Part shown: positions 1 through 19,610 of the stretch, in pieces
How the letters are laid out: the number at the start of each line of letters is the position of its first letter
How positions within the stretch are numbered: position 1 is the stretch's first letter
DNA from: Candidatus Latescibacterota bacterium
GTDB taxonomy: Bacteria > Latescibacterota > UBA2968 > GCA-2709665
NCBI GenBank assembly: GCA_965203805.1
Contig: OZ241917.1
Location: 4,224,001-4,288,000, forward strand
Direction: 5' to 3'
DNA: 64,000 bases
The notes under the pieces: model-generated
What the model saw: only the letters and a program-made list of their open reading frames with translations
Database searches by the model: none
Told to the model about the DNA's origin: nothing
Program-made: the position numbers and the translations under genes

Positions 1-1
1 G

Positions 2-3000: not shown

Positions 3001-4258
3001 CGAACAGCTGCGAACTGTGAATGATTCTCCGTTTCCGCACCGAATCAATCGAGGGAGGCGTTACGACAGGGCTGATTTTTATAAACGACATTCAGACGAT
3101 GGTTCAAATCCAGATGACAGGTTCTTTGTAGATTGGGACTTTGACAAGTATGATGTCCACGACCTTGCCAATGTCTTCGCTCAACAGGGCTGGGCCGTAA
3201 GGAACCTCATCTCGGACGAAGTTCACAGGCTCGATCCTTCCGTGACTAGCATGTACGACGATGCAGACCGCGAGATTCCCTTTCGCCGTCCCTCAGCTGG
3301 ATTGACTTCAAGTATTGATGTTTATGGACAATACCTCGCATGGCATGCGCTTGGTTTCGTTTCAGCATACCTGCTTTCACAGCATCCCATCGCAGAAGAC
3401 CAGGAACATTGCGAGCGCTGGACAAGTTGGCTTTCAAACAAACTACTAACACGTAGCGATGGCCTATGGCTTTCAGATGGAATGGACCGTCAACCGTTAA
3501 GTGTAAAAGTCAATTTACTTAATAAAGGAGAAGAAGGACTCGTGCTGACTGGCGACCGGAAAAAGCTAACAGGCTTGGTAGGGATCGATGGTCCGACAGT
3601 CGGTCGTGAACTTGTCGTCGAAGGCGATTGGAAATCGCACGACGGGATCGACGTTCAAATCAGCTCTGCTTTAGTAAATCTAGGCAAGGGTAGAAAGCTC
3701 GCCAAAGAACTCCTTGAGAAAAACGACGCGTTTTCCATGTGGCTCCCAACGTTAAATTACGATGGCGAAGAGAACGAGCCCTTCCTTACCGAAGAGAACG
3801 AGTATATGCCTTGGATCGTTAGTCCGACATACGAAGGAGAAAAGCTTGATCGATATGATCCCCTAAGCGTTATTACTGTCGAACGACGTCCCCGCTTTGC
3901 GGCAAGCGTCGCCGAGAAATTCTCACTTAAGCCTGGCGATCACTTCGGACGAAAATGGCTGTTGCCAAGAAGAAAGATTGCTGCGACAACAGATTCGTGG
4001 GGCTTCGAGATACCCTATGAGGACGGCGGCCAGAGGTGTGCGAGGCTTGTTTGCAGGACGGAGTTTCTCAGCAGAGTGCTGGAATGGAAAAAGGCCGATC
4101 TCATATTAATGATCAAACTCAGCCGATATGTTGAAGGAGACCGGGTCAATCGGAAAAGTCGATTTTCTAAAACTGTCGCCGTTTTGCGGGTTAGAAAGGA
4201 TCTGACGTTCGAGTATTTCGCCGGTCCCGTGAATCAAGTAAAACAGTCGGGTTTCTGA
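2..4258 (+). CDS. Avs3a-like (AVAST type 3) STAND anti-phage protein, C-terminal helical/TPR sensor region; 5'-truncated by the window edge
   Basis: Frame is open from nt 2. The C-terminal blocks LLGSPRATDRWRAAHSV, LPFYYLHARLWLLISLAR, PHVVIRHFA, YLAWHAL, LTRSDGLWLSD, ISSALV and LDRYDP match my recollection of the Avs3a C-terminus. The NTPase and effector domains lie outside the window. Confidence 0.75.
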   Translation, partial: TIASVLSGDLDDASRHYASAFDWIRHDIESARDNDHSRQRPEQIDHASIPFFRVAQGRQRRAIRFMGIWYPWYAFEISGQFFELCRQAIRRDPEFRPQLDAFLDALTSQIGLLAGAMSFVDLSDERSQELLGKLAKVCKRTTNVKTAGGYTEERRHELPDGLRKAAAIAASFGMAEEALGISLRAPHARPRVWSMVDLYSDGELLPFLFRVALRAAVTSTEVHQRDILPSELYGLAKGIDKSLPRDQFQKKLKEKLQKQIDRDRDLAENERQIREGVERDIDRFLNHRLGPLLELTRAFASFLGSRVGQADRPFTELVNVWARVRTNPEGYHIESQISRFFHLLGTRVVIFALWARRDIRAASARFLLKHLHQSNNLPPSTLIEIIATVARRPRFGVISGEQAVRARSLIEREDDVNTRTVLFAKLARAILPVSADEAAEYFRTGLEQLDAIGSGDYDFTNALLQFASAIKGDELSEESFHTFTNICELNTLYNEEEKFTWATFGTAMSKVSGPRGLTKLSRWHDRGKVSLKYTLLPYLAALLRDGKIDPEDAVALNCLADPAELWACNTETFANIIHKGRFSNAEILITESVQQYEANNPLFPSANILKTLAAIAGDVFGKRHAKTKNLMRTHRRISEVNHDLNRQQDYNPAGGVRLGELADDAQQKSIQARDTAAKTNPLDEDSLRNAISQMKDARFSGELKSEFFRRLRARVRLADRSKYIWLVACLEELDTYAKFEELAECKSAWSASSAGLNSLYKTLATPILDIHAEDLLDFGRLSTYQLKNVSDLTGVPVGALAIELANVFSMADWTVPSSAWLGLASIICKDADKGQGQKALRNLFNSAPARMTSTVVDGPWKPGLYPASEVSAIASGLVWQLLGSPRATDRWRAAHSVRCFARMGRWEVIDALAHKLPSMDSKGYGAPELPFYYLHARLWLLISLARIALDFPEEIANYREKLMCFALDDSHPHVVIRHFAKEAILACDRAGALSLSQKQREQLRTVNDSPFPHRINRGRRYDRADFYKRHSDDGSNPDDRFFVDWDFDKYDVHDLANVFAQQGWAVRNLISDEVHRLDPSVTSMYDDADREIPFRRPSAGLTSSIDVYGQYLAWHALGFVSAYLLSQHPIAEDQEHCERWTSWLSNKLLTRSDGLWLSDGMDRQPLSVKVNLLNKGEEGLVLTGDRKKLTGLVGIDGPTVGRELVVEGDWKSHDGIDVQISSALVNLGKGRKLAKELLEKNDAFSMWLPTLNYDGEENEPFLTEENEYMPWIVSPTYEGEKLDRYDPLSVITVERRPRFAASVAEKFSLKPGDHFGRKWLLPRRKIAATTDSWGFEIPYEDGGQRCARLVCRTEFLSRVLEWKKADLILMIKLSRYVEGDRVNRKSRFSKTVAVLRVRKDLTFEYFAGPVNQVKQSGF

Positions 4259-4372
4259 CCGTACCCAGTTCTATCGTGGACATTACGCCGCTTTCGTCCG
4301 GCGAGTTCTTGAGGTGCAACAAGGAAATGTGCAATGAAATAGTGGCTGCATCAATCCTTCTAGGAGACGCCC

Positions 4373-5143
4373 ATGCTTACGCAAGCGCAGTTGGCGCAAT
4401 ACGACCGGGACGGGTTCGTGCTGGTGCGGGGACTGATTCCGGAAGGGACGATTGCGAGCGCGGAGGCGGCGATGTGGTCTGTCCTAGGCATGGACCGGGA
4501 CGATCGAGCTTCGTGGTCTCCGTTGCCCGGGGACTCAGATGGGGTGACGACCGTCGGCAGCCAGGGGGTGATTGAACACTTCGGGCTCAAGGACCACGCG
4601 TTAATGGCCTGTTATACTCCCACATTCGATGAAGTGCAGAGCCAACTTGCCGGGAAAAACGCGGATGCATTTCACTGTCCGAAACCGCAGCCGGAGGCGG
4701 TTTGGACGCGCAGTGTCTTTCCGGTTTCGGATAGCTGGAATCATCACAGCGGGCATGCCGATGGCCAACATCGACCATTCGATGTCTTTCCGGGGTCCTT
4801 CCGCGTCTCGTCCCTGACGTATCTCGATTCCGGCGTCGCGCAGGGCGGCGGAACCGTGGTCTGGCCTGGATCGCACCGGACGCTGGGCGACGCTGCGACG
4901 AAGGATCCCGGAAGGTATCGTACGCTGTCTGACTTTGAGAGACCGACCCGGAAGTTCGACTTGGGCGATCCGATTGAGATGAGGCCGTCCCGGGGAGAAG
5001 TACTCTTTTTTCACTATCTGCTTGTTCACGCCGGATCGCTCAATACAGGTCACAAACCGCGTTTCGCGCTACGGTGGATGTGCACGTGCGACACGTGCCG
5101 CATCTGGGAAAAGTACGGCAAGTGGAATATTTGGATGCCTTGA
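4373..5143 (+). CDS. Phytanoyl-CoA dioxygenase (PhyH) family Fe/2OG oxygenase
   Basis: MLTQAQLAQYDRDGFVLVRG start, HAD (HxD), GGTVVWPGSH, distal H in LVHAGSLN, conserved R; RBS AGGAG. Confidence 0.85.
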   Translation: MLTQAQLAQYDRDGFVLVRGLIPEGTIASAEAAMWSVLGMDRDDRASWSPLPGDSDGVTTVGSQGVIEHFGLKDHALMACYTPTFDEVQSQLAGKNADAFHCPKPQPEAVWTRSVFPVSDSWNHHSGHADGQHRPFDVFPGSFRVSSLTYLDSGVAQGGGTVVWPGSHRTLGDAATKDPGRYRTLSDFERPTRKFDLGDPIEMRPSRGEVLFFHYLLVHAGSLNTGHKPRFALRWMCTCDTCRIWEKYGKWNIWMP

Positions 5144-5186
5144 AGGTGGGGGCGTCGGGCAGCGAAACGGTGGCATTTCGACAAGC

Positions 5187-6194
5187 TCAGCGTCCACATA
5201 GAATTCGTTCGACTTGATTCTCGTCGAGAAAATCTAATGCGTTACGTAATACGGAGTCGCACTGTCCTGGTGGCTGAGCCGGTAATAGTTCGAACCACGG
5301 TTCTGCATAGTCGGCCCTGACTTGCAGTAAAGGAGACCTGAGCAAGGGTAATGCCGGATGACGACCAGATAACATATGGGAGGGGGTCACGTCATAAGCA
5401 AAGTGCAGCATAGGAGTCTTGTTTGCTCCATTGTACAAAACAGTCGGCCTGGCTGACACACAGACATCCGAGTTACCTGCGGCTATAGCAATCATGTAGC
5501 CTAATGTGCCGTGAACCAGTCTTGCCGCCTCTTCGCCTGGAGATTCAGTTTCCTCCAACAAAAAGCTGATCGTATCGCTGGTTTCGGCATTCTCCATTTC
5601 CATTGAAGCAGTCAAGAACTGCCGCATTTGTCGCCTATCGCTAGCCCCATAGAGCTTGGACTCCACCGTGAGCATCAGAAGCCACGGTTGCCATGCATCT
5701 TGGCGATCAGCATCAAAGAGGCGCCTAAGGGCATGGGCTCTGTTTTGGACACTTAAGTTACCGCGTTCATATGGCAGAAATTTGCCATAGTAGTCAAGGT
5801 AAATGACGTCAAAATCCCATATGTACCCCGCGTCGGTCCGGAAAGTGGTTGAGACAAATTCCGAAGGTGGCTTCCCGCTCTTGTTTCTCAATATGATCTT
5901 GTCGACGTCACCCAAATGGGCTCGATGGCGTATGCTACTAAACTGAGTCCTTAGAACATGCTTAACAGACTGAAACCTTTCACTGCTGAATTCTACGGCG
6001 GCTATGTACTCGCAGAGGCGGCCCCAGCAGCGCAAGTCCAACGCTTCCTCACCAGGCAAGCCGAAATATCTGATTTTACCCTTCTTTCGACGTACTGCTG
6101 CCTCGACCAACGGTTGATCATACTTTTCTCTAACTACGTTTTTTTCTGCACTGGAATAGTAGCTCTTTCCTTGACGACTGGGGCTTCTTCCCAT
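5187..6194 (-). CDS. Divergent class I SAM-methyltransferase-fold protein
   Basis: Rossmann-like motif order YFGLPG, IAAVE, GDV, FDVIYLDYYG; GGGAGG RBS in the 8-nt gap after the upstream ATPase stop. Confidence 0.6.
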   Translation of the reverse strand: MGRSPSRQGKSYYSSAEKNVVREKYDQPLVEAAVRRKKGKIRYFGLPGEEALDLRCWGRLCEYIAAVEFSSERFQSVKHVLRTQFSSIRHRAHLGDVDKIILRNKSGKPPSEFVSTTFRTDAGYIWDFDVIYLDYYGKFLPYERGNLSVQNRAHALRRLFDADRQDAWQPWLLMLTVESKLYGASDRRQMRQFLTASMEMENAETSDTISFLLEETESPGEEAARLVHGTLGYMIAIAAGNSDVCVSARPTVLYNGANKTPMLHFAYDVTPSHMLSGRHPALPLLRSPLLQVRADYAEPWFELLPAQPPGQCDSVLRNALDFLDENQVERILCGR

Positions 6195-6202
6195 TGCCTC
6201 CC

Positions 6203-8065
6203 TTAGCTCCCTATTTCCTCGGCAATCGCTTCAACAATAGCTCGTAGCACTGTTTCATATCCCTCACCTCTCCCACCCATTCCAATCACCAGACCTCGGT
6301 CGATTGCTTTTACAAGGGCATCCTCAGGCGTGCTTTCTAGCGAAACACCATGCTGTGCCAACGCCTCTCCCAGTGACACTGGTGCTAAGGGTGACCAACC
6401 CAGTAGGGTTCTCAACTCCCTACGAGAGGACTCCAATTCGGGACGAAGGTCGACACCTGTTGCCTTAAGTTCGTCAAGAACCCCTATGGCTCTCGTAACT
6501 GACCTAGTATTGATCGAGGATACCAAAGCCTCTGCCGCTTTCTTATATTGAACATCGCGAGTCTCTTCGGCTATCCGCAGTGCAATGCTGAGTGCGTTCT
6601 TTAATAACATCTCTTGAGGAGGAGGTTGGGTAACTTTGCGTCGTTTTCGTTCTGTACTCCTTTGTGCGGCCCTAGCGACACCTCCCAATTGGCTGATAGC
6701 CGACTGAAGTCTGCTGATTACGTCGTCCAAGAGACCCTGTTGTACGTCATCAAATTGGACTCGCGGCCGTCCGCGTGGCTTTCGCTTATGGGTCGCGATC
6801 TGTTGATGCACGTTCTCAAGTTCTTTGCGATAGTTTTCACTGTTCCTATAGACCTCGTAGCTGTCTGAATTCGGTGCATCCTTTTGTTTCCGTAGCTGTT
6901 CGATGGTGGTGTCGATTCCCTCAAGTAGCCGGTCTGCCCTAATCATCGCCTGCATAGCGCGAGCCTTGCGACTGAGAGGATAAAAGAAATCTTCTGCTTG
7001 CTTTGCGAAAAGTTGCCTGGCTGGGCTGGATTCTAGGTCATTCCGCGCAGCATTAGGAAAGATCTGATCAGTTACCAATATGTGGACTTCCCCCGTATAG
7101 TGATGGTATAGAGTTCCTCCCCCAACGGCGGGCCAAAGCCCTTTGAGCGCAAGCCTATCCCCTAAAGTGAACCCCTTTACCTTTAATAGGAAGCCACTTA
7201 CTTCTGAACCCTCATGCATGGGTAGCTGCTTTCCATTAGCAGACAGTGCGTACCACACGAAGGCCAATGCTGTGCCGTCCGGTGCCTTTATCCAATTAGA
7301 TTCCGGGCTGTATACTCCTGTCGCGACTGGAGGAAATACCTCTACGTCACTCTCGTCAGCGATTCGTAGAGTAATCCGAACTGGATTTAGCCTAACGTTG
7401 TCTTCAAGCCATCCATTGACTTTTTCACCATAGCCATCTTCTGAGAAAGCCACAGGAATCGTTCTTAGAAGATAATCGTTGACCTCTGCCGCATTGTTTA
7501 ATTGCGCTCTGTATTCGTCGCCCAATCCATCTAACTCCACCACAGTAAAGTGCTCGCCGACATCGCCATAGTAAGGTTCAACGAACAATTCACTATACTG
7601 ATACATTAGGTCTGGAAGTCCAACACCCTGACGGGCATCAGAAGCTTTGTCAGCTTCAAGCAGGCGGCGCATTTCGCCAAATTGAAAGGTCCAACCAACG
7701 AGGTTTTCCATCCCGACTTTCTTGCTTGTGATCGTCATCTCTTCACATATTCCGAACGCCGAATAGATGCCAATGCCGCGATACCCGACCATTTCTCTGG
7801 GGCTTTTTTCAGACATTCCAAATCGCCGAGCGACCCGGATCCCCTCCTGATTCATGCCGTAGCCATCATCTCTAATCACAGCTTGGGAGCCATCAACCGT
7901 AATGAGAATGTGACCGGCTTCAGCATCCACCCCGTTTTGGACATATTCCCTGAGTGCATCTTTCGCGTCGGAGTACAGGCCTCGTGAAAGGATGTCCAAT
8001 AGCTCCCCGCCTACCTCCCAACTCTCTAGCTGAACTCGCCGCGTTTGGCGTTCACTTTGATTCAT
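6203..8065 (-). CDS. GHKL (Hsp90/MORC-like) ATPase with S5-like domain, helical C-terminus and AT-hook
   Basis: REYVQNGVDA (ExxxN), DDGYGM, GYRGIG, YTGEVHI..PNAARNDLE; KRKPRGRPR. Confidence 0.85.
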   Translation of the reverse strand: MNQSERQTRRVQLESWEVGGELLDILSRGLYSDAKDALREYVQNGVDAEAGHILITVDGSQAVIRDDGYGMNQEGIRVARRFGMSEKSPREMVGYRGIGIYSAFGICEEMTITSKKVGMENLVGWTFQFGEMRRLLEADKASDARQGVGLPDLMYQYSELFVEPYYGDVGEHFTVVELDGLGDEYRAQLNNAAEVNDYLLRTIPVAFSEDGYGEKVNGWLEDNVRLNPVRITLRIADESDVEVFPPVATGVYSPESNWIKAPDGTALAFVWYALSANGKQLPMHEGSEVSGFLLKVKGFTLGDRLALKGLWPAVGGGTLYHHYTGEVHILVTDQIFPNAARNDLESSPARQLFAKQAEDFFYPLSRKARAMQAMIRADRLLEGIDTTIEQLRKQKDAPNSDSYEVYRNSENYRKELENVHQQIATHKRKPRGRPRVQFDDVQQGLLDDVISRLQSAISQLGGVARAAQRSTERKRRKVTQPPPQEMLLKNALSIALRIAEETRDVQYKKAAEALVSSINTRSVTRAIGVLDELKATGVDLRPELESSRRELRTLLGWSPLAPVSLGEALAQHGVSLESTPEDALVKAIDRGLVIGMGGRGEGYETVLRAIVEAIAEEIGS

Positions 8066-8451
8066 ATGGCAGGCCTCTGTAGCTTGTGAAATTCAGGAAT
8101 CTCGGATTGAGATTTCCGACCAACTCTTGAATTGCCGATAACAGAATCGCAGATTCGTTGAACTCGTCGTGAGTGATGTTGAAATCCAGAATTGAGACTG
8201 AAAAGCCGCCGGTCAGTTCATCTTGGACCTGCCACCACCATAGGAACGTTAGAGAATTCACCGAAACGTCCACCGAATATTCTCACTTCGATGCAGAATT
8301 CGTGATGCAACTTGGAGCACTTTCCGTTCAGGCGAAGACTGAATCTCTCGCAAAGACTATAAACCACCATTTACGTCAATTGGACGAAATGAACATGCAA
8401 ACCGAGCTTAATCCGCCGTGGTTTGAATGACCAACGACCTGACGGAGCCAA

Positions 8452-10020
8452 TCAGACGGACATCGACTCCATCGCGTTGTACACTTTTCGGAACGCCTTC
8501 GCTACCCGGCCCTCGCCGCCGAGATTAAAGCTCGCATTGCGAACTCTTGCATTCAATCGCCACATTAGTCCCTCAATGGAGTTGTAGTCTTGCACTGATA
8601 ACGATTTGTACTTGCGGCGATTGTAATCGAGGAAGGGGAGTAGCTTTCCATTCAAGTGATGTAGATCAAAGCCTTTTTCTTCGATATAGGGACGGTATTG
8701 CTCGAACAATGGCGTGCTTGGCACCGGAGTAAACAGCATTGGAATCACGGAGCCGACACGGCTAGAGGCAAATGTGACTGTGTCGTATACCGCTTGCAGG
8801 TCTTCGTCTGGCAGGCCGAAGAGAATGAAGCAGTTGATGTCCTGGCAACGCGACTTGAATCCGGCCTTCTCAGCATTGTTCAACGCATAGAAAAACTTGT
8901 CCATGTTTGTGTGAGTCCGTTGCCACGATTTGGCCATGTTCGCGTTGACAGTTTCTAGCGGTAAATACAACCTCTTAAAGCCTGCGTCACGCATCAGTTG
9001 GACGGTGTCTTCGTGCAGCAGGCGCACTTCTATACCCTCTGGTGCGTGTAGTTTGATCCCTTTCAAATCGCGATCGTTGCAAATGAGTCGGCAAAGCTGC
9101 TTGAAATTCTCTCTGCCGAGCAGCAGGTTGTCTTCGTAAAAACAGAATTCGCGAATTCCTTGCTCAAACCGCCGCTTGATCTCATCGTACGCGACTTCGG
9201 ATTCCCGAACCCAGATCTTTCGGCCTTCGTTCAATACGTTTGCCGAACAGTAAGAACATTTAAAGGGGCAGCCTCGACTCGTCGTCATGATGAGGTAATC
9301 GGGCAATCTCTCGCCTTCTTCACCATCTTCGACGTCCCCTGCACCGTCTCTGTCGTACAACTCGATGGCAAGTGGAAGTGGATTCGCGTCCGGTATTGTC
9401 GCGGACACTACGATATCTCGCTTCTTCTGTTCGGGGTCAAGTGGATCAAGCTCACGACCCATCACGTGCATTGGATCATTCAACCCGAGGTTCTGCATGG
9501 CGTGGTCGGGAATAAGTGTGGGATAGATTCCACCAACACGGAAAACGGCCCTTGGAAACACCTGCCGACAGACTTCAATTACGTCACGGGTACTTTCCCA
9601 CCAGTACGTCATGATCGACGATATCCATATTTCATCTGGTTCTGGAAATACTACCTCGTCGAAAGGCGATTCATTCGCACTTCGTGCACGCGCTTTTATC
9701 GCTTCGAGCCGTTTTCGCAGTTCCTCGAGCGACATGCCGAAAACGTATTCGATCTTTTCGTCGGGCTGCGATTCGTAATTCGTCCATTTATCCGGGGTGA
9801 AGGGTTCGTCTGCGGAACAGAGTTTTCGTACACAGCGCTTTCGCTTTGGCACGGTTCGCCGCTTGTTGGCCTCCATGCAGTCAATCAGCTTCAGCATGTA
9901 GCCCTTGCCCTGAAGCCACGACGCAACGCGCAACAGCCCATAGGGCATACTCCAGTTTGCCCAATACTGTACGTCGTAGACAGGCGGGCTAATCAATAAC
10001 GCTGAGGGGGAACGCTTCAA
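8452..10020 (-). CDS. Cobalamin-binding radical SAM enzyme (class B methylase-like)
   Basis: N-terminal B12-binding domain (LLISPP..PYGLL..IWISSIMTYWW..VGGIYPT) plus SRGCPFKCSYC (CxxxCxxC, nt 9247-9270). Start placed at TTG 10020 behind a GGGAGGT RBS; the ORF track starts at 10077. Confidence 0.9.
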   Translation of the reverse strand: MKRSPSALLISPPVYDVQYWANWSMPYGLLRVASWLQGKGYMLKLIDCMEANKRRTVPKRKRCVRKLCSADEPFTPDKWTNYESQPDEKIEYVFGMSLEELRKRLEAIKARARSANESPFDEVVFPEPDEIWISSIMTYWWESTRDVIEVCRQVFPRAVFRVGGIYPTLIPDHAMQNLGLNDPMHVMGRELDPLDPEQKKRDIVVSATIPDANPLPLAIELYDRDGAGDVEDGEEGERLPDYLIMTTSRGCPFKCSYCSANVLNEGRKIWVRESEVAYDEIKRRFEQGIREFCFYEDNLLLGRENFKQLCRLICNDRDLKGIKLHAPEGIEVRLLHEDTVQLMRDAGFKRLYLPLETVNANMAKSWQRTHTNMDKFFYALNNAEKAGFKSRCQDINCFILFGLPDEDLQAVYDTVTFASSRVGSVIPMLFTPVPSTPLFEQYRPYIEEKGFDLHHLNGKLLPFLDYNRRKYKSLSVQDYNSIEGLMWRLNARVRNASFNLGGEGRVAKAFRKVYNAMESMSV

Positions 10021-11344
10021 GATCCCAGACCTCCCTACGTAAACTGTTTCGCAGCAACTCGGCACCCATACTTCCATTCAAAAAATCGAATGACCGGCTG
10101 CGGACTTTCTCGTTGAGGAACGCCGCCATCCTGTAAAGGTCATGGTACTCGTATCGGGTGATTCCGTTATGCTCGGCGAACGGAAATCTGTGAGGGGACA
10201 GATCAGCGTACGAAAGATCGTCAAGATACTCCTTATGTTGTTCGTACAGTTCTGTTCCCGGCGTTGCGGTGTATGGCTTGAGGATGACACTTCCAAACGT
10301 CCTGAGAACGGTGAAACAACGATGGACGATCCCTTCCAGGGTTTCGCCAGGGCGCCCAATCCATACGAATCCGCAAGTCCTGTTTCCGTCCGCAAGATCA
10401 ATCCCCGCTTCCAGTAAGTGGGCTCTACACTGCTTGTATACGACCTCGTCTAGATCCAATTCCTCCTCGGACTGCTCAAAGTGAAGCTCCGCGAACGTAC
10501 GATCTGCGAACATCCTCGCTAAGTCTGGTGTGACCCGTTCGGGATGCAGCCCTGACACCGCATGAAACTGCAGATGTGGGTGGAGTCCTTTCGTACTCTC
10601 GACGATCTCTCGAAGTAGCTTGCCCTCGTCGCGACAAATGTCGTCCTCGGCATCAAACACGGCAACGCGAAATATTCCAAGATCGATTGCTTCCCTAATC
10701 GTGGGAATGGCCGTAGCTGGATTGAGAGTAATCGAAACGAACGACGGTTTTTCGCCTTTGTAGAGCTTCAGTGATGATCCATTGTCGGCATGCCTAAGTG
10801 GCGTCCTGACGAACAAGTCGGCATCACAAAAGTCTACTGCGTTGTCCAGCATAAATCGTGGGTAATTGCCCAGTACCGCCAGTTTCGCGTCTGGAAGCCA
10901 AAGGCGTAGCTTCGTGCATAATTGGTGAATGCTGGCGAACCAATAGCTGCACAGCGAAGTAATCCACACTTGAGTTGGCTCGTTTCGCTCGCCTTCAGCA
11001 CGTCGCTCGACGACCCAATCCTTGAGTGCGTCGAATGGTTTTCCGAATCTCCACATTGGATATTTGTAAGCAAATTGACCATTGCCGACTTGCTTGTATC
11101 TCTCTCGCCCGTTCAACGCTTTTTTTTGTACGCGGCCTTTGTTGTTCGGCACCATGAAGTCAAACAGCTCAACCCCACATCCCTTGCTGTTGTTGAGATA
11201 CGCCCCAATTCCGAGTAGGTCCAATGGTTGATTCCACTGCAGCCAGCTATAGCGTGTCTCGAACACTGGCGGGTTTACCAGCAGTATCCTGTCGCGCTCT
11301 TCGACTTGGTTCAGTAGTATTTGTCCTGTGACAGAATTAGTCAT
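9989..11344 (-). CDS. B12-radical-SAM paralogue lacking the CxxxCxxC loop (probable pseudo-enzyme or partner subunit)
   Basis: Colinear with 8452..10020 along its whole length (LLVNPP, QPLDLL, VWITSLCSYW, IGRPGETL, GSVILKPYTATPGTELY, LNEKVRSRSFDF), but about 25 aa containing the Fe-S motif are absent. Overlaps both neighbours. Confidence 0.8.
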   Translation of the reverse strand: MTNSVTGQILLNQVEERDRILLVNPPVFETRYSWLQWNQPLDLLGIGAYLNNSKGCGVELFDFMVPNNKGRVQKKALNGRERYKQVGNGQFAYKYPMWRFGKPFDALKDWVVERRAEGERNEPTQVWITSLCSYWFASIHQLCTKLRLWLPDAKLAVLGNYPRFMLDNAVDFCDADLFVRTPLRHADNGSSLKLYKGEKPSFVSITLNPATAIPTIREAIDLGIFRVAVFDAEDDICRDEGKLLREIVESTKGLHPHLQFHAVSGLHPERVTPDLARMFADRTFAELHFEQSEEELDLDEVVYKQCRAHLLEAGIDLADGNRTCGFVWIGRPGETLEGIVHRCFTVLRTFGSVILKPYTATPGTELYEQHKEYLDDLSYADLSPHRFPFAEHNGITRYEYHDLYRMAAFLNEKVRSRSFDFLNGSMGAELLRNSLRREVWDLEAFPLSVID

Positions 11345-13328
11345 TGGATTGCATCGTGAAAGACAATAGTGTCACGGCCATTTCCATCATCTGTTCGGCG
11401 TCGCCTTCCGCCGCTGTGCGTGCCAATACCAATGCCAGGGCGGTGCGTAGGAATCCCCGCTCATCCATCTGGGACTTTGCAGCATGGCCCCAATTAACGT
11501 GAATTCTGTCCCGCTTGAAGTCTATTTCAGCGATGGGTTGGCTCGCCGTGCCCTTCTTGTGTACGACGTCGAACCGCCGTTTGAACAACATAATACCGTT
11601 GTCCCATTCAGGTCGCGATACGTCGATTGTCACCTGTTTTTTTTCATAGTCTATTGTTGCTGCTTCTGACTGACGACTTGCCTGATTTACGGCCATACCA
11701 GCCACTTTGTTGGGAACGTCAAATCCTGCCGGCTTCGCAGATGCTAACCCGTTCGGGCGCGGGCTGTTCGACTTGAGCATATCCCGTATCGCGTTGGCTT
11801 GTTGTCCGCCTTCGGTCATAAGGTGAGTTATCCCCGCCGACACATCATCCATCGCACGCCGGATGTACGCCGCGCGACTCAACGTGCTATCGATTGACGA
11901 CCTCGCCTGGCTTCGTTTTAGGACTGCATCAATGGTCCTGCCGAGATATCCGCCAACCCTTTCACCCTCTCCCCGGAAATACTTACGCAAGGTGAGAAAA
12001 TCACCACTCTCCTCGTAAAAGCCCTCGCGACCAGGATTGATCGCATCTACCGCGTCCAAGCCGCTCAGCACATTTATCTCACCCGTGATCTGGCTCAATG
12101 CGGCCTTGTGGGCTCCAGTAAGAAGGAATTCGGCGCCGAGAAAGGTCGGATCGCCGATTGCGACACCTTGGACACGTATAGAAACGCCTCGATACTCGGC
12201 CGGGAACACAACGCTTTCGTAGCCGAGAAGGAATCCTTTCGCGATAAGACCACCCTCGTTTATGTCTACTGCCGTGATCATATCCTTGTATAGCGTCGCT
12301 GCGTCCGGTTCGAACGGATAGAGTGGACGAGCCAACTCTCTCTCCGAATTGCCGTGCCGGAGAGTCACTTTTTCCAGTGTGGGTGGCGATGCATCCTCCA
12401 AGAGGGCTTCAAGATGTTCAGCTTGATCTGGCGCCGTCGTGTACCCGATTGGTGTACATCGTGACAAATGCCACGCGACCTGTTCAAAGCCGCTGCGACT
12501 GGCAACATTTCGAACGAAGCCCTTCCGGCGCCCGGCTCGGAGTTCGCGCTTTACAAACGACTTGAGTCCCTCTATTGCGACCGTTGTCCCTCCCGTCGAT
12601 TCCCGCTGCAGCTCTTGAATTTCGATCAACGCGAAATCGGACAGTTTTTCAAGGTCGGCAGAATCCGCGAGCTTGAGCAAGCGATCAAAGTCCAGAGTCG
12701 CTCGAAAACCCAACCTAGTGCAGTCGATGTCAAATTCAATGTCAACCTCACCGAAATCCTTCTTGAAGTCGAGACTACCAGTCTTCGCGTTCAACTCGTA
12801 GTCGGTTGCATCAACCTTCAGCCGTTTTCCAGATTGGATCACCTCGAAACTGCACAACCTATTGAGTAACTGCGGGTCAATGGGTACGCCCAGAGCGCTG
12901 ACGAGATCTATGGACGGGTATGCCTTTACGATCGAATGTGTCCGTTTGAACTGACGAGGACTGCTTGAAGTGATGATCATCCGGTGGCAGTAGCGTGCGA
13001 GCGCGAGGAATCCTATCCCTTTGTTCCCGATGCGGCTTCGATTTTTCTTTGGCGTCCTTTCCCCTGACCATTTACGACTGCTGCCGCCGATTCGAGTGAA
13101 GTCGCATCTGAACTCAAACGGACTCATCCCGTTGCCGTCATCCGATATCGTGGCAGACGTGAAGTCGTCAGCAAACTCGATCGAAACTTCTGTCGCGTCG
13201 GCATCGTAAGCGTTACTGACGAGTTCCTTGAACGCTTTGACGAACGGCTTATAGACGCCGGACAGCTCTCGAAGAATCGAAGGATCAACGCCTCCAACGC
13301 TCATTCCATGTTTCGATGCTTCTCTCAC
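11337..13328 (-). CDS. MORC-like GHKL ATPase (HATPase_c_3) with S5-like domain
   Basis: KELVSNAYDADA, DDGNGM, RIGNKGIG, GTTV; ITGEINV..INPGREGF; 8-nt overlap with the next gene. Confidence 0.85.
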   Translation of the reverse strand: MREASKHGMSVGGVDPSILRELSGVYKPFVKAFKELVSNAYDADATEVSIEFADDFTSATISDDGNGMSPFEFRCDFTRIGGSSRKWSGERTPKKNRSRIGNKGIGFLALARYCHRMIITSSSPRQFKRTHSIVKAYPSIDLVSALGVPIDPQLLNRLCSFEVIQSGKRLKVDATDYELNAKTGSLDFKKDFGEVDIEFDIDCTRLGFRATLDFDRLLKLADSADLEKLSDFALIEIQELQRESTGGTTVAIEGLKSFVKRELRAGRRKGFVRNVASRSGFEQVAWHLSRCTPIGYTTAPDQAEHLEALLEDASPPTLEKVTLRHGNSERELARPLYPFEPDAATLYKDMITAVDINEGGLIAKGFLLGYESVVFPAEYRGVSIRVQGVAIGDPTFLGAEFLLTGAHKAALSQITGEINVLSGLDAVDAINPGREGFYEESGDFLTLRKYFRGEGERVGGYLGRTIDAVLKRSQARSSIDSTLSRAAYIRRAMDDVSAGITHLMTEGGQQANAIRDMLKSNSPRPNGLASAKPAGFDVPNKVAGMAVNQASRQSEAATIDYEKKQVTIDVSRPEWDNGIMLFKRRFDVVHKKGTASQPIAEIDFKRDRIHVNWGHAAKSQMDERGFLRTALALVLARTAAEGDAEQMMEMAVTLLSFTMQSND

Positions 13329-13682
13329 GCAATTTGCCCGATTCCACCGGTGGTTAGGACATTAAAAAAACGTGGTTTCTTTTTCCCAGGCAAGGGGAAT
13401 TTGGATGCGAAATTGGCAGAGTTGCGGGCCTCCAACACCCACAATCGCGTTGCTGCATGTGAGCATTCACCGACGATTCCACGCGACGAGAGGCAACTCA
13501 TCCCAGGTCATGTTGGTCCACTGTGTACGTGTTCAGTTGACTGCATAGTTCCCGTATTGGTATGTCTTTTCTATAAATACCAACTAATTGCGATCTTTGC
13601 AATACCGGCTGCAGACCTTGTTAATGAAATGGAAGGTCTACAGCGAAAAAGTGCGATTTTCCTGGTGATTCCAAAGCAGCCC

Positions 13683-14561
13683 CTACCCTTTCTCATCCAT
13701 AAACGCCTCGTATAGCGCCAGTGGTTGGGACATCGAGTCGTCGATTTCGGTGACGGCGAACCGGACCTCCACGGTACGTTCGTCGCCAACGCGGAAATCG
13801 TCCCCGAACAGCGAGAGGTAGAGGGGGTTCTGGTCCCTGAACGGGTCCTTCATGTTCTCGCTCTCGTACCCGCTGATCACCGCATAGCAGTCCTGCGGGC
13901 GCGACATCAGCACGCCCGCAATGCCTTTCTCCAGGTTCGCGCTCATGATCACGGGCGCCTCGAAATACCGTTGCGGATTCCACTGGTAGAGGCCCCAGAT
14001 CCGGTCCCATCGCCCGTCGGTCGACCGCCGGGCCGCGTGCTGGTCCCTCGAGAAGACCAGTCCCGTTCCCACGAAGACGTCGTTCACCTCCGGCGCGATC
14101 CACCGCGCCCGGTCCGCGGGAATGTCGAACGGACTGCCCTGAACGTACACGTACGGCCGCAGCGACAGATCGAAATAGTTCGACAGGAACACTTCGTAGG
14201 CCGGGTAGGGCCAGTTGGACTTCACGGTAATGGACAGGTCCACCGCATTGGGCTCGACCACCTCGTACCTGGCCGTCATCTCCGCCTTGTGATCGTCCGT
14301 CGGCGCCCAGTGCACGTCGATCGCATTGCCCCCGGACGTGATGCTGCGCGCGTTTTCCCGGGCCTGCCCCATGCAGTGATTCTGTGAAAACATGAAAAAC
14401 AGATTCAGGAGGTCGTACTTCGGATGAACCACCTGTGCGCCCGTCGGTTTGTGCGTCAATTCCTTGATCCCATGCCGGTCCCCGTCCGGCTGAATGTGCC
14501 CCGCCATCTGCTCCGTATCAAAGTGCCACACGTTCTGTTCCGCATCGTGCCTCAGCGCCAT
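13683..14561 (-). CDS. Hypothetical protein, beta-rich (possibly mutarotase-like fold)
   Basis: Clean ORF with host-like GC3 bias; AAAGGAGG RBS before ATG 14561. Confidence 0.6.
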   Translation of the reverse strand: MALRHDAEQNVWHFDTEQMAGHIQPDGDRHGIKELTHKPTGAQVVHPKYDLLNLFFMFSQNHCMGQARENARSITSGGNAIDVHWAPTDDHKAEMTARYEVVEPNAVDLSITVKSNWPYPAYEVFLSNYFDLSLRPYVYVQGSPFDIPADRARWIAPEVNDVFVGTGLVFSRDQHAARRSTDGRWDRIWGLYQWNPQRYFEAPVIMSANLEKGIAGVLMSRPQDCYAVISGYESENMKDPFRDQNPLYLSLFGDDFRVGDERTVEVRFAVTEIDDSMSQPLALYEAFMDEKG

Positions 14562-14610
14562 CTCAACGCCTCCTTTCAGATCTCCAGCCAAAACCGGGTC
14601 GCGGGCCCTC

Positions 14611-17145
14611 TCACGTGAGTCTCAGACATCTCGAAAACCCGTACGGATGCGCCGGAAGCAGGGCGCCGGGCATCGGCGGCGTTTCACGGACTATCGCCTG
14701 CCTGGCGGGCGCCTCGTATCCGGCGACCCATGCCTCCACCGTCAGTTCGTCGAGATCGTCACCGGTTATGTCCAGCGTTACGGACGCCCATCCACTTTCG
14801 TGAATGGTGAACAGATAGTCGTCACGTTCCCTCGGTCCCACGGGAGGCAGGAACCTGGCCGATCCGTGGCTGCTCCGCCCCTGCCGGTGGATGCGCTGGC
14901 TCACATAGGCGTATCGCGCCGGCACACCCTTGTACCGCGACCCGCCGGCTCGGACGTGCACGCCGTCCAGCACCTTTTCCGGTCCGTGCAGGACAACCTG
15001 CAGTTCCGGACGCTCGAATCGATGGGGAACCGCAACGTACCATTGCCTCCTGTGGGTACCGTCATTCAATTCGTCGCAGGTCGTCTCGGCGGATAGACCG
15101 GGGATTTGCATATCTGGATGTACCGCGGGACCCACGTCGCCCGTAAGCCGCCGGTCCCCTGGAAACAGGTATTCACATCCGCCATCGCACAACCGGGCCA
15201 TGAACGCCGCGCCGGGAATCGGCGACGCGTCCTCCTGTGCGTCGGCGAAGAATTTCAACAACCGCACTTCGTTCCCCAATATCGTCACCGACCCTTCCAG
15301 GTCCTGGCAGAAGGGATAGACCTGCCGAATCGTGCCCGGCGCATATCCCAATTCATCGTCCTGACCGAGATCCACGACCTGTGGTTCAGGGGAAGGATTT
15401 CTGAGCAGGAGCCAGGCGCTTCCGTCCGACGGATGCAGGAAGCCGTACACCTCGCCGAAGGCCGGATTCCCCAGCACCATCCGCGTCTCCTTCGTCCCCA
15501 ACGCGTCCGCGTTGAATCGCATCCAGTCCATCATCGCCTGCAAGTGTTCCGCCCGGTCCGCCCTCAGGCTTTCGGGATTTATAGGCATCGGCATATAGGT
15601 GGTGCCGCGGCAGGCCGCCAGCACCAGATTGTCCAGCCATGTATGGGGCGGATCGCCGAACGCGTTGGTCAACGCCTGTACGAATTCGTGATTGTCATAC
15701 GCGTCGAAGAAGATCGGCGTCTCCGCACGGCGCATGATCTGATAATAAACCGTGTCCCGATGCGTCAGGGCCCGGTCGCGCTGGGTGCGAGACGGCCACG
15801 ACGCGTATTCACAATCTCCCGAGTGAACCAGCCATACGTGGTTCGCCAGACACAGCCACCAGGGGCTGGGCCACCACCCGTTCCGCGTCACCAGGTCCGG
15901 GTTGACGGCCCGAAGCCGGCGGTCGATCCTGTTGAACGCGTTCACCGACGCCTCGCGCATGTGATCGGGTGACGGGTAGCGGTCCGCAAAGTCGGGATGG
16001 GTGGCGCACTCGTTGTCCCAATCGATCTTCAAATGAACGGCCCCCACGTCTCCCACCAGCGCCTCCCAGCGCCGGGCGAGGGCTTCTTCGAAGGAAGGCT
16101 GCGCCATCACCACAAAAGTACCGCTTCCGTAGGAACCTGGACCTTCGCCGACCCGCCATCCCTGCTCCTGAATCCAATCGGTGTCGAATCCCACCGGACC
16201 GTTGTGCGTGACCCACAACGCCAGCGAGAATCCCGTTTGTTTCAGATCCTCGGAAAACGCGACGAGCCGGGAATCGTCCTCGTCGTCGCCCTTGTGCCGG
16301 TAGATTGTCTTCCTGTCGAACCAGCCCGCGTCAAACGCGAGAGAATCCGGCTTCAGGCCCAGGTCCGAAACCGCCTCTGCGTAGGCCTGGTTCATTTCGA
16401 ACGAGTCGAGATACTCCCGATTGCCCAGATAACGGACCGACCATCCCACCGAAAGATGGAATATCGGCTTTGACAGCCGGGGCAGGCGGATCTGCCACAT
16501 GTAGTCCATGAATGCGTCTCGCACGGCCTGGTGGCTCTCCGCCGCGCCGTAGACCGCGGTGTAGCTCTCGATGCGTCGTTCATCGTCCCAAACCGGGTGG
16601 TGGAAGAGCTCCAGCCTGTCTCCAGGAACCACAAAGCCCACCGGATGCTCCAGCCCGGCAAACCAGTCTCCGGCCCACACCGGATACCCGCAGCCCGGTA
16701 CAGGCGGGGCGTACGAGTCGAGCCCGGACTGTTCTTCCGCGCCCGGCCCGCCTCGGACACCGTATCCCACGCGTCTCATGGGCCTTGGAGGACTGTCCTG
16801 AATGTCCACCCAGAGCCGGTCCGGCGTGGGCGCGCCCGGACTTTCCGGGGCCTCGAGCGTCAACTGTTTACTGAACCAGGGATCCTCTCCATCGATCCAG
16901 TACCGCACCCGGGCTCGAATGCCGGTCGTTTCGTGGCGGTAATCAAACGCAATCTCATTCTTACCGGGTTCAACACCGGTCCGGACAAACAGGTCCGCCG
17001 GAATCTCCACGTCGCCGAGCCGGATCATGAACGCGGGAAAGTCGAACGCGCGGCGCGAGCCCGACAGCCGATTCTCCAACTGCAGATGTCCGCCCTCCCA
17101 TCGCAGACAGAGGGCGTTGTTTTCGAGTACCCAATGATCGGTCAC
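14611..17145 (-). CDS. Putative glycoside hydrolase, clan GH-D (GH27/36-like) TIM barrel
   Basis: LAFDAGWF and HLKIDWD resemble the DDGW and KxD motifs; GGAGG RBS before GTG. Confidence 0.55.
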   Translation of the reverse strand: MTDHWVLENNALCLRWEGGHLQLENRLSGSRRAFDFPAFMIRLGDVEIPADLFVRTGVEPGKNEIAFDYRHETTGIRARVRYWIDGEDPWFSKQLTLEAPESPGAPTPDRLWVDIQDSPPRPMRRVGYGVRGGPGAEEQSGLDSYAPPVPGCGYPVWAGDWFAGLEHPVGFVVPGDRLELFHHPVWDDERRIESYTAVYGAAESHQAVRDAFMDYMWQIRLPRLSKPIFHLSVGWSVRYLGNREYLDSFEMNQAYAEAVSDLGLKPDSLAFDAGWFDRKTIYRHKGDDEDDSRLVAFSEDLKQTGFSLALWVTHNGPVGFDTDWIQEQGWRVGEGPGSYGSGTFVVMAQPSFEEALARRWEALVGDVGAVHLKIDWDNECATHPDFADRYPSPDHMREASVNAFNRIDRRLRAVNPDLVTRNGWWPSPWWLCLANHVWLVHSGDCEYASWPSRTQRDRALTHRDTVYYQIMRRAETPIFFDAYDNHEFVQALTNAFGDPPHTWLDNLVLAACRGTTYMPMPINPESLRADRAEHLQAMMDWMRFNADALGTKETRMVLGNPAFGEVYGFLHPSDGSAWLLLRNPSPEPQVVDLGQDDELGYAPGTIRQVYPFCQDLEGSVTILGNEVRLLKFFADAQEDASPIPGAAFMARLCDGGCEYLFPGDRRLTGDVGPAVHPDMQIPGLSAETTCDELNDGTHRRQWYVAVPHRFERPELQVVLHGPEKVLDGVHVRAGGSRYKGVPARYAYVSQRIHRQGRSSHGSARFLPPVGPRERDDYLFTIHESGWASVTLDITGDDLDELTVEAWVAGYEAPARQAIVRETPPMPGALLPAHPYGFSRCLRLT

Positions 17146-17165
17146 GGAATTACCTCCAGGTCTCC

Positions 17166-19580: not shown

Positions 19581-19610
19581 TTCGTTTTCTCCTTGCATCA
19601 AATTAGCCGT

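Follow-up and report, generated by a model that had tools for sequence, protein, structure and literature searches.

Prokaryotic GHKL ATPases of the MORC/paraMORC type have been linked to restriction-modification (Iyer, Abhiman and Aravind 2008, PMC2292703), and the term "radical SAM" does not occur in the part of that paper available to us. The available part of a 2026 review of B12-dependent radical SAM enzymes mentions DNA modification for the radical SAM superfamily in general only (PMC12931638). In Dnd/Ssp (DndABCDE-FGH), a multi-gene and mobile system, an Fe-S enzyme puts the mark on DNA and restriction falls to separate ATPase modules, while MADS (mad1-8) is a large modular operon of methyltransferase, ATPase and nuclease modules, with MAD7-MAD8 described as an ATPase-nuclease module in the accessible part of its description (PMC13662399). 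Radical SAM enzymes are also found in anti-phage defence as the prokaryotic viperins, which are single-domain enzymes of free nucleotides. The cluster described here matches no described system: PADLOC places its five genes in no known system, as the original prediction had anticipated, and literature searches returned no description of it.

The cluster occupies positions 5187-13328 on the minus strand of a 64,000-nt stretch of Candidatus Latescibacterota DNA (the window). In the direction of transcription its genes encode a GHKL ATPase (ATP1), a Cys-less radical SAM paralogue (dSAM), an active radical SAM enzyme (rSAM), a second GHKL ATPase (ATP2) and a class I methyltransferase-fold protein (MTl). 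The coordinates, the GC content and PADLOC all agree with the original prediction, which had placed five co-oriented genes in a low-GC island about 0.9 kb from an Avs3a-like gene. GC content is 0.49-0.54 over positions 1-13500 and 0.60-0.65 beyond them, and the island begins about 4 kb upstream of the window; the Avs3a-like gene (PADLOC Avs3a, 1.8e-86) ends at 4258, 929 nt from the end of MTl. The PhyH gene that lies between the two adjoins MTl here as well as in two congeners, and such an adjacent copy was seen in close relatives only; PhyH genes are common elsewhere in the window. The gene junctions are also as predicted, the ORF coordinates giving an 8-nt overlap of ATP1 with dSAM, an overlap of dSAM with rSAM, and a gap of 8 nt between ATP2 and MTl.

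The rSAM gene (8452-10077, 541 aa) matches the Pfam Radical_SAM family (8.6e-17) through a barrel carrying the motif CPFKCSYC, which follows an N-terminal B12-binding-like Rossmann domain. Its true start is likely to be the TTG at 10020, which lies 9 nt after GGGAGG and is favoured because homologues are 513-525 aa long; the overlap with dSAM is 32 nt with this start and 89 nt with the longest ORF. The dSAM gene (9989-11344, 451 aa) has no match in Pfam, NCBIfam or PADLOC, and its product aligns end to end with rSAM (BLASTP 1e-16, 21% identity) and has no Cys triad. The same division holds wherever the pair occurs: CxxxCxxC is found in 42 of the 88 ORFs of the protein cluster that contains both paralogues (cluster 0), each of them the downstream gene, and it is absent from the upstream copy in every locus, while the downstream copy carries CP[FWH]xCxYC in every locus. 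The two genes overlap or are separated by at most 12 nt at 37 of 38 junctions. Modelling of the complex, which had been proposed with the prediction, supports this pairing: a model of dSAM with rSAM, fed with custom-made alignments, reaches an ipSAE of 0.79 against 0.00 for the best control, a value that 58 of 80 solved complexes and 2 of 110 mismatched pairs also reached, with at least 87% of contacts common to three runs and partner pLDDT of at least 84. The two proteins are thus predicted to form a heterodimer.

The description of the pair as an active and a dead cobalamin radical SAM enzyme therefore stands as to active and dead, but not as to cobalamin. Cobalamin binding by rSAM is not established because its match to the B12-binding family PF02310 (18.9 bits, E 1.4e-3) is below the Pfam cut-off of 32.1; cobalamin dependence is consequently unproven, and so is methylation chemistry. 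Sub-threshold NCBIfam matches are to the PhpK, HpnJ, BchE and AprD4 family models and further to the HpnR, ladderane-lipid, ApyD and MCR glutamine methylase models, and the closest solved structure is the diol dehydratase AprD4 (6fd2, 1.1e-7).

ATP1 (11337-13328, 663 aa, cluster c2) and ATP2 (6203-8065, 620 aa, cluster c1) both match HATPase_c_3 (1.9e-15 and 5.4e-15, respectively, in Pfam), and homologue alignments indicate that both keep their ATP-binding motifs. The Bergerat motifs of ATP1 (E35, N39, D42, D63-G65-G67, G101-K103-G104-G106) are invariant in 20 homologues, and the invariant residues of ATP2 are E40, D66, G70, K87, G94, G97 and G99. The ATP1 model (pLDDT 83.7), which has a MutL/MORC/Hsp90-type transducer, finds MORC2, MORC3, MutL N40 and Hsp90 as its best Foldseek matches (E 3e-11 to 2e-9); a long coiled coil at about 460-520 is followed by a conserved C-terminal beta/alpha domain of unassigned fold. 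In 23 of 45 loci the gene immediately upstream of dSAM is ATP1, and 10 of those 23 show the 8-nt overlap. The prediction of two GHKL/MORC ATPases fits ATP1, which is MORC/MutL-like, but only the GHKL part of it fits ATP2: profile comparison with the PDB returns the N-domains of HtpG, TRAP1 and Grp94 (1e-17 to 1e-13), so that the N-domain of ATP2 is nearest to HtpG/TRAP1/Hsp90 (1e-17) and not to MORC. The middle region of ATP2 has a weak similarity to ATP1 (E 0.047).

MTl (5187-6194, 335 aa, cluster c3) always adjoins ATP2, with a gap of at most 12 nt in 15 of 18 pairs. It belongs to the PF28273 (PP_RS20740) family, an assignment precomputed on the window's own protein (P0127), and Atlas clusters with PF28273 or Methyltransf_35 score 0.94-0.96. 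The predicted methyltransferase fold is upheld by its model (pLDDT 81.6, pTM 0.86), for which the best 50 of 246 Foldseek matches to the PDB at E<=0.001 are, with few exceptions, class I SAM methyltransferases or proteins of the same fold; the best is the tRNA methyltransferase Trm1 (3axs, 7.7e-7, TMq 0.48), and many rRNA or tRNA methyltransferases are among the further matches listed.

A 386-nt spacer (8066-8451) separates rSAM from ATP2 and marks a module boundary. It contains no conserved small ORF and no terminator-like site on the minus strand, it is 76% conserved, with indels, among four close relatives, and the DNA contig of one relative diverges from the window at 8522. The distribution of the genes reflects the same boundary. 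The cluster consists of two modules, ATP1-dSAM-rSAM and ATP2-MTl, and either can be found without the other. Two genomes (G083 and G085) have the rSAM pair and MTl nowhere, two Chloroflexota genomes carry ATP2-MTl but lack the pair, and in one locus (L051) ATP2-MTl stands beside DUF5131 alone. In the 45 loci found, which come from about ten phyla (among them Latescibacterota, Planctomycetota, Binatia, Chloroflexota, Acidobacteriota and Bacillota), dSAM and rSAM stand side by side. These loci are not independent, since they include near-identical copies (L021 with L022, and L032 with L033 and L044), and L001, L003 and L005 belong to congeners of the window. The survey of homologues that the prediction called for thus found a pair that does co-occur elsewhere, but not one indivisible unit of five genes.

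It is possible, given this separability, that two unrelated systems with no functional link merely stand side by side. The spacer in the window, the opposite-strand position of ATP2-MTl in several loci and its occurrence with DUF5131 alone are all in keeping with such an arrangement. We nevertheless consider it doubtful, since 19 of the 45 loci have MTl, and 27 have ATP2, no more than 10 kb from the pair, whereas the frequency of each module among 301 sampled Chloroflexota genomes is only about 1-3%. ATP2-MTl recurs near the pair in several phyla and in differing gene orders, which is unlikely to be due to chance, although shared residence in defence islands could inflate the count.

The cluster acts as an accessory, mobile and horizontally spread element, because its presence is patchy, inter-phylum identity is up to 67-75%, it lies in a low-GC island by an Avs3a-like gene, and mobility genes are among its neighbours. 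Active rSAM occurs in 3 of the 14 other species that represent the genus, in none of 66 others of the class and in 8 of the 301 Chloroflexota genomes. The pair was not found in phage or plasmid collections, and the sole yield of an IMG/VR search was one distant radical SAM match (26%).

The recurrent neighbours of the pair, judged by their sequence matches, are DNA-directed. Among the 31 of 45 loci that have 5 kb or more of flank on each side, a GHKL ATPase (c1, c2 or c7) is near the pair in 29, an MTase-like gene (c3, c13 or c16) in 21, a HerA/FtsK-like ATPase (c5 or c8) in 18 and DUF5131 in 14 (15 of 46 loci overall). Cluster c5 matches the DndH C-terminal region (2.1e-49) and mad8 (6.3e-20), c8 matches mad8 (2.5e-8), c14 is a DGQHR/DndB/DpdB-like protein (2.2e-40), c17 is a type IIG REase-MTase (E 0) that also matches mad2, c22 is an SPL-like radical SAM protein (3e-6, under the Pfam cut-off), and c4 is DUF5131, a radical-SAM-superfamily protein matching the PADLOC candidates PDC-M41B and PDC-M30B (about 1e-120). 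These neighbours are of DNA-modification or restriction type or are candidate defence genes, which supports that part of the original interpretation. Of the 108 neighbours that do not recur, most are housekeeping genes or have no annotation, and the set includes transposase, integrase, ResIII and PIN genes.

Our preferred reading, to which we assign a probability of about 0.4, is that the cluster is a modular, horizontally mobile defence-island system that performs radical chemistry on DNA. In this system a heterodimer of rSAM and the Cys-less dSAM, with one catalytic site, would be loaded or positioned on DNA in an ATP-dependent manner by the translationally coupled, MORC/MutL-like ATP1 and would install a radical-derived mark on base, sugar or backbone. 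A methyl group on C or P would be the mark only if the N-domain of rSAM truly binds cobalamin. The second module, ATP2 with the Trm1-like, SAM-dependent methyltransferase-fold MTl, may add or read a second mark. In many relatives the DndH/MAD8-like HerA/FtsK-type ATPase modules would supply restriction of unmarked DNA. These modules, common in relatives, are absent from the window, so the window copy may be a reduced variant or one that only modifies, or else unmarked DNA may be countered by the GHKL ATPases themselves. The DndH-like ATPase (c5) was found nowhere in the window's genome, the DGQHR gene is absent from the window, and the genome's sole DUF5131 copy is about 680 kb away, with none in the locus. 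Gene content, folds, the missing Cys motif, synteny, patchiness and neighbours are observed and the heterodimer is modelled, whereas DNA as the substrate (suggested by context only), self-marking and a role in anti-phage defence are inferences. Against this reading, the DNA-directed neighbours might do no more than share defence islands with the cluster, each module can occur by itself, cobalamin binding is unsupported and the nearest solved relative of rSAM is a dehydratase, and searches of Pfam, NCBIfam, PADLOC and structures identified no nuclease or other effector among the window's five genes. The claim that no obvious nuclease is present accordingly holds for the window, but many relatives carry the HerA/FtsK-type modules. 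As a whole, the observation in the original prediction is confirmed and its interpretation is partly supported.

The lack of a nuclease in the window would also suit a heterodimer that resembles viperin in producing a modified nucleotide or other small antiviral molecule, or one that modifies tRNA or rRNA, with MTl serving as an RNA or nucleotide methyltransferase akin to Trm1 and the ATPases as sensors. The structural matches of MTl to Trm1 and to rRNA and tRNA methyltransferases point in this direction, and the prokaryotic viperins, as far as the accessible literature describes them, provide a precedent for radical SAM nucleotide modifiers in defence. We regard this as unlikely, because the architecture differs from that of viperin, the recurrent partners (DndH-like, DGQHR, type IIG and SPL-like) handle DNA, a MORC/MutL-type ATPase is translationally coupled to the pair, and a housekeeping role in RNA modification is at odds with presence in 3 of 14 congeners.

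The Hsp90-like N-domain of ATP2 raises the alternative that the two ATPases, one Hsp90-like and one MutL-like, hand a protein or peptide to the heterodimer and the methyltransferase for post-translational modification, and many enzymes with the B12-domain architecture of rSAM modify peptides or proteins, the ApyD and MCR glutamine methylase models being among its sub-threshold matches. Such a role is distinctly improbable, since the spacer and flanks contain no conserved small ORF or precursor gene, genes for proteases, transporters or RiPP recognition do not recur in the vicinity, and the neighbours are DNA-directed. Least probable is a lipid or secondary-metabolite tailoring pathway, for which the hopanoid (HpnJ/HpnR), ladderane-lipid and phosphinothricin (PhpK) models and the PhyH dioxygenase adjoining MTl could be cited, but those models score 33-50 bits against family cut-offs of 360-650, the PhyH copy has the restricted distribution given above, and no NRPS, PKS, lipid or scaffold gene recurs beside the pair, the prediction having noted the lack of scaffold genes for the locus itself.

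Compared with the described systems, the cluster is unlike viperins, which have no dead paralogue, GHKL partner or B12-like domain and whose PADLOC and NCBIfam models are unmatched by the window's proteins. With class B radical SAM enzymes such as AprD4 it shares the Rossmann-like domain followed by a CxxxCxxC barrel, and the weak PhpK, HpnJ, BchE and AprD4 matches, but rSAM is far below every curated family cut-off, always accompanies a Cys-less paralogue (its predicted partner in a heterodimer) and is linked to a GHKL ATPase. The GHKL domain, S5-type transducer and restriction-modification-like context of ATP1 recall MORC/paraMORC systems, as do its structural matches, but ATP1 is accompanied here by a radical SAM heterodimer and a PF28273 protein rather than by a classical MTase or REase. 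DUF5131, a component of the candidates PDC-M30 and PDC-M41, recurs beside the pair and beside ATP2-MTl alone; however, the window locus has no DUF5131, and MTl, c13 and c16 match no PADLOC model. MADS has a comparable modular organization, and neighbours in relatives match mad8 (c5 and c8) and mad2 (c17), but the mad models are unmatched by the window's five proteins, and the accessible part of the MADS description names no radical SAM or GHKL component. Dnd/Ssp offers a parallel in overall plan, with relatives of the locus carrying both a DndH-C-terminal-like ATPase and a DGQHR/DndB-like protein; PADLOC finds no homologue of DndA, DndC, DndD, DndE or Ssp in the window, and the core here is instead a radical SAM TIM-barrel pair with GHKL ATPases.

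The five genes all lie on the minus strand of the window and encode, in order of transcription, the GHKL ATPase ATP1 (11337-13328, 663 aa; HATPase_c_3 1.9e-15, 57.5 bits), the Cys-less radical SAM paralogue dSAM (9989-11344, 451 aa; no match in Pfam, NCBIfam or PADLOC), the radical SAM enzyme rSAM (8452-10077, 541 aa; Radical_SAM 8.6e-17; CPFKCSYC), a second GHKL ATPase, ATP2 (6203-8065, 620 aa; HATPase_c_3 5.4e-15), and the methyltransferase-like protein MTl (5187-6194, 335 aa; sub-threshold NCBIfam match to the PP_RS20740 family). The original prediction described five co-oriented genes in a low-GC island beside an Avs3a-like gene, a description that the ORF, GC and PADLOC results bear out, and both the 8-nt overlap of ATP1 with dSAM and the 8-nt gap between ATP2 and MTl are recovered from the ORF coordinates. 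The true start of rSAM is probably the TTG at 10020, which follows a GGGAGG box and would give a protein of 522 aa, similar in length to its homologues (513-525 aa), and a 32-nt overlap with dSAM.

The GC content is 0.49-0.54 from the start of the window to about 13.5 kb and 0.60-0.65 past that point, and the low-GC stretch sets in about 4 kb upstream of the window. The same island contains the Avs3a-like STAND gene, which is cut by the window start (L049:17770-20000 together with window 1-4258, plus strand); its length of about 2,160 codons is close to that of the 2,090-position PADLOC Avs3a model, and the score of 1.8e-86 against this model refers to the C-terminal two thirds of the gene only. 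A PhyH dioxygenase gene at 4373-5143 (plus strand), between the Avs3a-like gene and MTl, was rejected as a member of the system because it is adjacent in congeners only and because PhyH genes are frequent elsewhere in the window; another gene of this family lies at 40659-42437 (plus strand), and further PhyH genes (ORF clusters c18 and c19) flank the system in loci L001, L004 and L005. The genes upstream of ATP1 at 13683-19601 (c11, c12 and c15) were likewise rejected and are treated as flanking host genes: they have no Pfam or PADLOC match, lie in higher-GC sequence and co-occur in close relatives only. This interval holds a 302-aa ORF (13683-14591) and two large minus-strand ORFs of 844 and 811 aa (14611-19601), which are kept upstream of ATP1 only in L001, L003, L005 and L006, and a heparinase II/III-like gene adjoins them. 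Some 40 kb from the system, on the plus strand (50936-61398), a further defence-type cluster encodes a Fic protein (50936-52276), a SIR2_2-domain protein (59638-61398) and, between them, a complete MmeI-type IIG restriction-methylase (52655-55453).

rSAM carries the motif CPFKCSYC, matches PF04055 at 62.2 bits against a cut-off of 29.5, and has cysteines (C270, C274 and C277) that are invariant among 24 homologues. dSAM and rSAM align over their full length (BLASTP 1e-16, 21% identity), with a gap in dSAM at the position of the Cys triad, and neither dSAM nor any upstream orthologue contains CxxxCxxC or a looser Cys motif. Both paralogues fall into one ORF cluster of 88 ORFs, of which 42 carry CxxxCxxC; every carrier is the downstream gene, and the motif is absent from all upstream copies. 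When the two proteins are modelled as a complex the score is 0.79, against 0.00 for the best control, a level that 58 of 80 solved complexes attain, as do 2 of 110 mismatched pairs; these counts hold only roughly, since the complex model was built from custom alignments. Three runs share at least 87% of contacts, the pLDDT of the partner is at least 84, and the modelled interface is formed by the C-terminal parts of both chains. The prediction supports, rather than proves, a heterodimer with one catalytic site.

The original prediction spoke of an active and a dead cobalamin radical SAM enzyme, and the active and Cys-less paralogues are indeed present, but the dependence of rSAM on cobalamin is not established from its sequence, which matches the B12-binding family PF02310 at 18.9 bits against a Pfam cut-off of 32.1. 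Precomputed PF02310 annotation is found on 3 of 120 rSAM homologues among the matches listed, and rSAM scores far below the cut-offs of curated B12-radical SAM family models. The closest solved sequence is that of AprD4 (1.1e-7, barrel only), an enzyme that has a B12-type domain and is not known to use cobalamin. The profile of dSAM, searched against the PDB, returned biotin synthase alone (E 0.093). In three RNA libraries of one study, contigs cover parts of the ATP1, dSAM and rSAM genes (90-100% identity), which is not proof of transcription; they do not cover ATP2-MTl, an absence that carries no weight.

Both ATPases contain a GHKL domain, as had been proposed, and residues of the ATP-binding motif are kept across the homologues of each, and the proposed MORC character is better supported for ATP1 than for ATP2. 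The model of ATP1 (pLDDT 83.7) matches MORC2, MORC3, the 40-kDa N-terminal part of MutL and Hsp90 (E 3e-11 to 2e-9), with a TMt of 0.51-0.56 to MutL N40 and 0.52 to MORC3, and so points to a GHKL plus transducer architecture; the Bergerat motif residues are invariant and the predicted transducer is of S5 type, consistent with a MORC/MutL-type ATPase. Beyond the transducer follow a long coiled coil and a conserved C-terminal domain. A nuclease was sought in ATP1, where the whole-model Foldseek matches were dominated by the GHKL and transducer part and an Atlas search with residues 455-663 returned unnamed clusters only. The GHKL domain of ATP2 is clear and is closest to the Hsp90 family (HtpG, TRAP1 and Hsp90 N-domains, 1e-17), and its middle domain has weak similarity to ATP1 (E 0.047).

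The methyltransferase-like assignment of MTl is upheld by predicted fold matches and by the precomputed presence of PF28273 (PP_RS20740). Its model (pLDDT 81.6) is best matched by the tRNA m2,2G methyltransferase Trm1 (7.7e-7, TMq 0.48) and also matches KsgA and many other methyltransferases, so that MTl is predicted to be a class I SAM-dependent methyltransferase-fold protein and is a putative methyltransferase. Against the NCBIfam equivalog model NF047698, MTl reaches 41.5 bits where the cut-off is 200, which makes it a relative of that family rather than an equivalog. The invariant residues Y43, G45, P47, D53 and D134 include those of a YxGLPG motif and the Asp of an NLDFxGG-type motif, and the profile of MTl found nothing at E<=1 among PDB sequences. 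For the methyltransferase-like neighbour clusters c13 and c16, profile-profile comparison with MTl (E 0.0056, probability 6.5%, colinear motifs) is suggestive of kinship without establishing it.

Relatives of rSAM, sought in one genome per species, define 45 loci in groups including Latescibacterota, Binatia, Planctomycetota, Poribacteria, Chloroflexota, Acidobacteriota, Armatimonadota, Verrucomicrobiota, Desulfobacterota and Bacillota; these loci are not independent, as they include some near-duplicates and three congeners of the window. By tblastn and ORF clustering across the 45 loci, dSAM and rSAM are adjacent wherever both are readable, ATP1 is directly upstream in 23 (with the 8-nt overlap in 10 of these), ATP2 (c1) is present in 27, and MTl (c3) is present in 19 and invariably beside ATP2. 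Neighbours were counted in the 31 loci with at least 5 kb of flank on both sides, where at least one GHKL ATPase occurs in 29 (a third type, c7, exists besides ATP1 and ATP2), a methyltransferase-like gene (c3, c13 or c16) in 21, a HerA/FtsK-type ATPase in 18 and DUF5131 in 14. The identity of rSAM between Latescibacterota and Planctomycetota is 67-75%, which points to strong constraint together with recent horizontal spread. L003 is labelled Gemmatimonadota yet groups with the genus of the window (G006), the record label of L006 is also at odds with its kinship, and L021 (Anaerolineaceae) and L022 (Caldisericales) share one locus, for which all five queries gave the same tblastn coordinates and scores; binning or labelling artefacts may thus account for some of the apparent transfers between phyla.

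Within the window's genus, 3 of the 14 other species encode the active rSAM, and none of 66 additional genomes from the class does (E<=1e-80); among Chloroflexota the enzyme occurs in 8 of the 301 genomes sampled (E<=1e-60), six of them below 1e-150. Searches of 72,556 plasmids (E<=1e-20) and 50,697 phage records (E<=1e-10) did not recover it, and a search of IMG/VR with the single rSAM protein gave no match, while one with a 24-sequence rSAM alignment gave a single distant radical SAM gene of 26% identity. The idea of a phage DNA-hypermodification module was dropped on account of these searches. The distribution is that of a cellular, horizontally exchanged accessory system.

Co-occurrence of the genes recurs across phyla, as the proposal of a conserved five-gene synteny requires, but they do not form a single inseparable unit. 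The pair is found without MTl anywhere in the genome in G083 (of the Bacillota type) and G085, and of the four among 301 Chloroflexota genomes that encode MTl, one has it beside the pair, one on another contig and two without the pair; in these last two MTl follows ATP2-type genes, in one case also with DUF5131. These ATP2-MTl modules without the pair lie at L051:4665-8934 and L050:9082-13569, one of which has DUF5131 directly upstream and the other a second ATP2-like gene. The DNA contig of a relative matches the window over ATP1-dSAM-rSAM and diverges just past the rSAM stop codon. Because each part is found without the other and because of this break, the five genes are best described as two separable modules, ATP1-dSAM-rSAM and ATP2-MTl. 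They are separated in the window by an AT-richer spacer of 386 nt (8066-8451), which has 76% identity with indels among four close relatives; a precursor peptide or small RNA there was rejected, since the ORFs are short and unconserved, and consensus scans found fewer promoter-like and terminator-like sites in it than in shuffles. The separability of the modules would fit a chance adjacency of two systems, the alternative that survives best, but they associate far above base rates of 1-3%, if not obligatorily, and this alternative is unlikely. ATP2-MTl appears to combine with either radical-SAM-superfamily partner, the pair, DUF5131 or both, which suggests a wider family of modules that join a GHKL ATPase, a PF28273 protein and a radical-SAM-superfamily partner.

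The neighbours in relatives include several DNA-directed proteins. For c5 the matches are to the C-terminal ATPase region of DndH (2.1e-49) and to mad8 (6.3e-20); c8 also matches mad8 (2.5e-8), and its partner c9, present in L018, L025, L032, L033, L043 and L045, has no Pfam match and an insignificant best PDB profile match to NurA (E 0.34). c14 is a DndB/DpdB-like DGQHR protein (2.2e-40), c17 is a type IIG restriction-methylase, and c22 resembles spore photoproduct lyase (3e-6, just under the Pfam cut-off). c4 is DUF5131, matched by the PADLOC candidates PDC-M41B and PDC-M30B at about 1e-120; RadicalSAM.org places DUF5131 beside the SPL megacluster (PMC9477430). The small protein c6 (11 loci), whose alignment reads as a KOW-like N-terminus and a ribbon-helix-helix-like C-terminus, may be a regulator. 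The 108 non-recurrent neighbours include ResIII (3), HerA-type DUF87 (3), DDE transposases (3), TnpB (2), integrases (2) and PIN (2), and many of the rest are housekeeping or unannotated. The genome of the window encodes DUF5131 about 680 kb from the locus and lacks a DndH-like ATPase, so that the window's copy is without the putative restriction modules of its relatives. The Avs3a-like neighbour, the DNA-directed neighbours in relatives and the patchy distribution place the system in defence islands.

Starting from the gene content, synteny and neighbours, together with the predicted folds, the consistent loss of the cluster motif and the distribution, a DNA substrate, a marking role and a defence role can be proposed. 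In the favoured reading, to which a probability of roughly 0.4 is assigned, the genes form a modular defence system in which radical chemistry marks DNA: the predicted dSAM-rSAM heterodimer would be brought to DNA by the MORC/MutL-like ATP1 and would mark it, ATP2-MTl would add or read a second mark, and HerA/FtsK-type modules, where present, would act on unmarked DNA. A nucleotide or RNA target, with which the Trm1-like fold of MTl is compatible, is a fairly improbable alternative given DNA-directed neighbours, and a protein target, which the Hsp90-like ATP2 might bring to mind, is less probable still. Tailoring of a lipid or natural product is very improbable, as neither the recurrent nor the 108 non-recurrent neighbours resemble any biosynthetic cluster, in agreement with the earlier statement that biosynthetic genes are absent nearby. 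A more specific form of the DNA-marking reading is doubtful: the MORC-type ATPase would guide a heterodimer with one active site that writes a novel radical-derived DNA mark, such as a C- or P-methyl group, and in nuclease-free versions, of which the window's copy is one, GHKL clamps would silence or block unmarked incoming DNA. If this form is correct, it would be the first DNA modification by a B12-domain radical SAM architecture, used for self/non-self discrimination, and the clamps would be a bacterial counterpart of eukaryotic MORC-based silencing.

Known bacterial DNA modifications comprise methylation, phosphorothioation, 7-deazaguanines and glycosylated bases. Action of the heterodimer on DNA would add a new chemical class to these and would be the first role in nucleic-acid immunity for the B12-domain radical SAM architecture. 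An unexplored feature, common to all 45 loci, is that the active radical SAM enzyme is obligatorily paired with a paralogue lacking the cluster. The link to MORC/MutL- and Hsp90-like GHKL proteins offers a tractable bacterial model for the coupling of ATPases to nucleic-acid marking. Should the target prove to be something other than DNA, the loci still delineate a large group of conserved operons without an assigned function.

As the original prediction expected, comparison with PADLOC-DB 2.0.0 gave no full-system match. The matches obtained are local, confined to GHKL N-domains (REase_II, TmtA and MzaB; 6e-11 to 9e-6) and spanning about 90-120 residues each; rSAM has one negligible match (PDC-M51A, 4.7e-3), and dSAM and MTl have none. 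By these models the locus therefore belongs to none of RM, BREX, DISARM, Dnd, Ssp, Dpd, MADS and Mza, and the full-text literature searched yielded no description of a system that combines GHKL ATPases with a radical SAM pair. No system described in these models or in that literature corresponds to the five-gene set, which is a genuine gene system, conserved across phyla and strongly tied by its context to DNA-directed defence; the chemistry proposed for it is putative. The likeness of the system to prokaryotic MORC-RM associations lies in the ATPase, and its likeness to Dnd/Ssp and to MADS lies in modular logic and in some of the accessory genes of its relatives.
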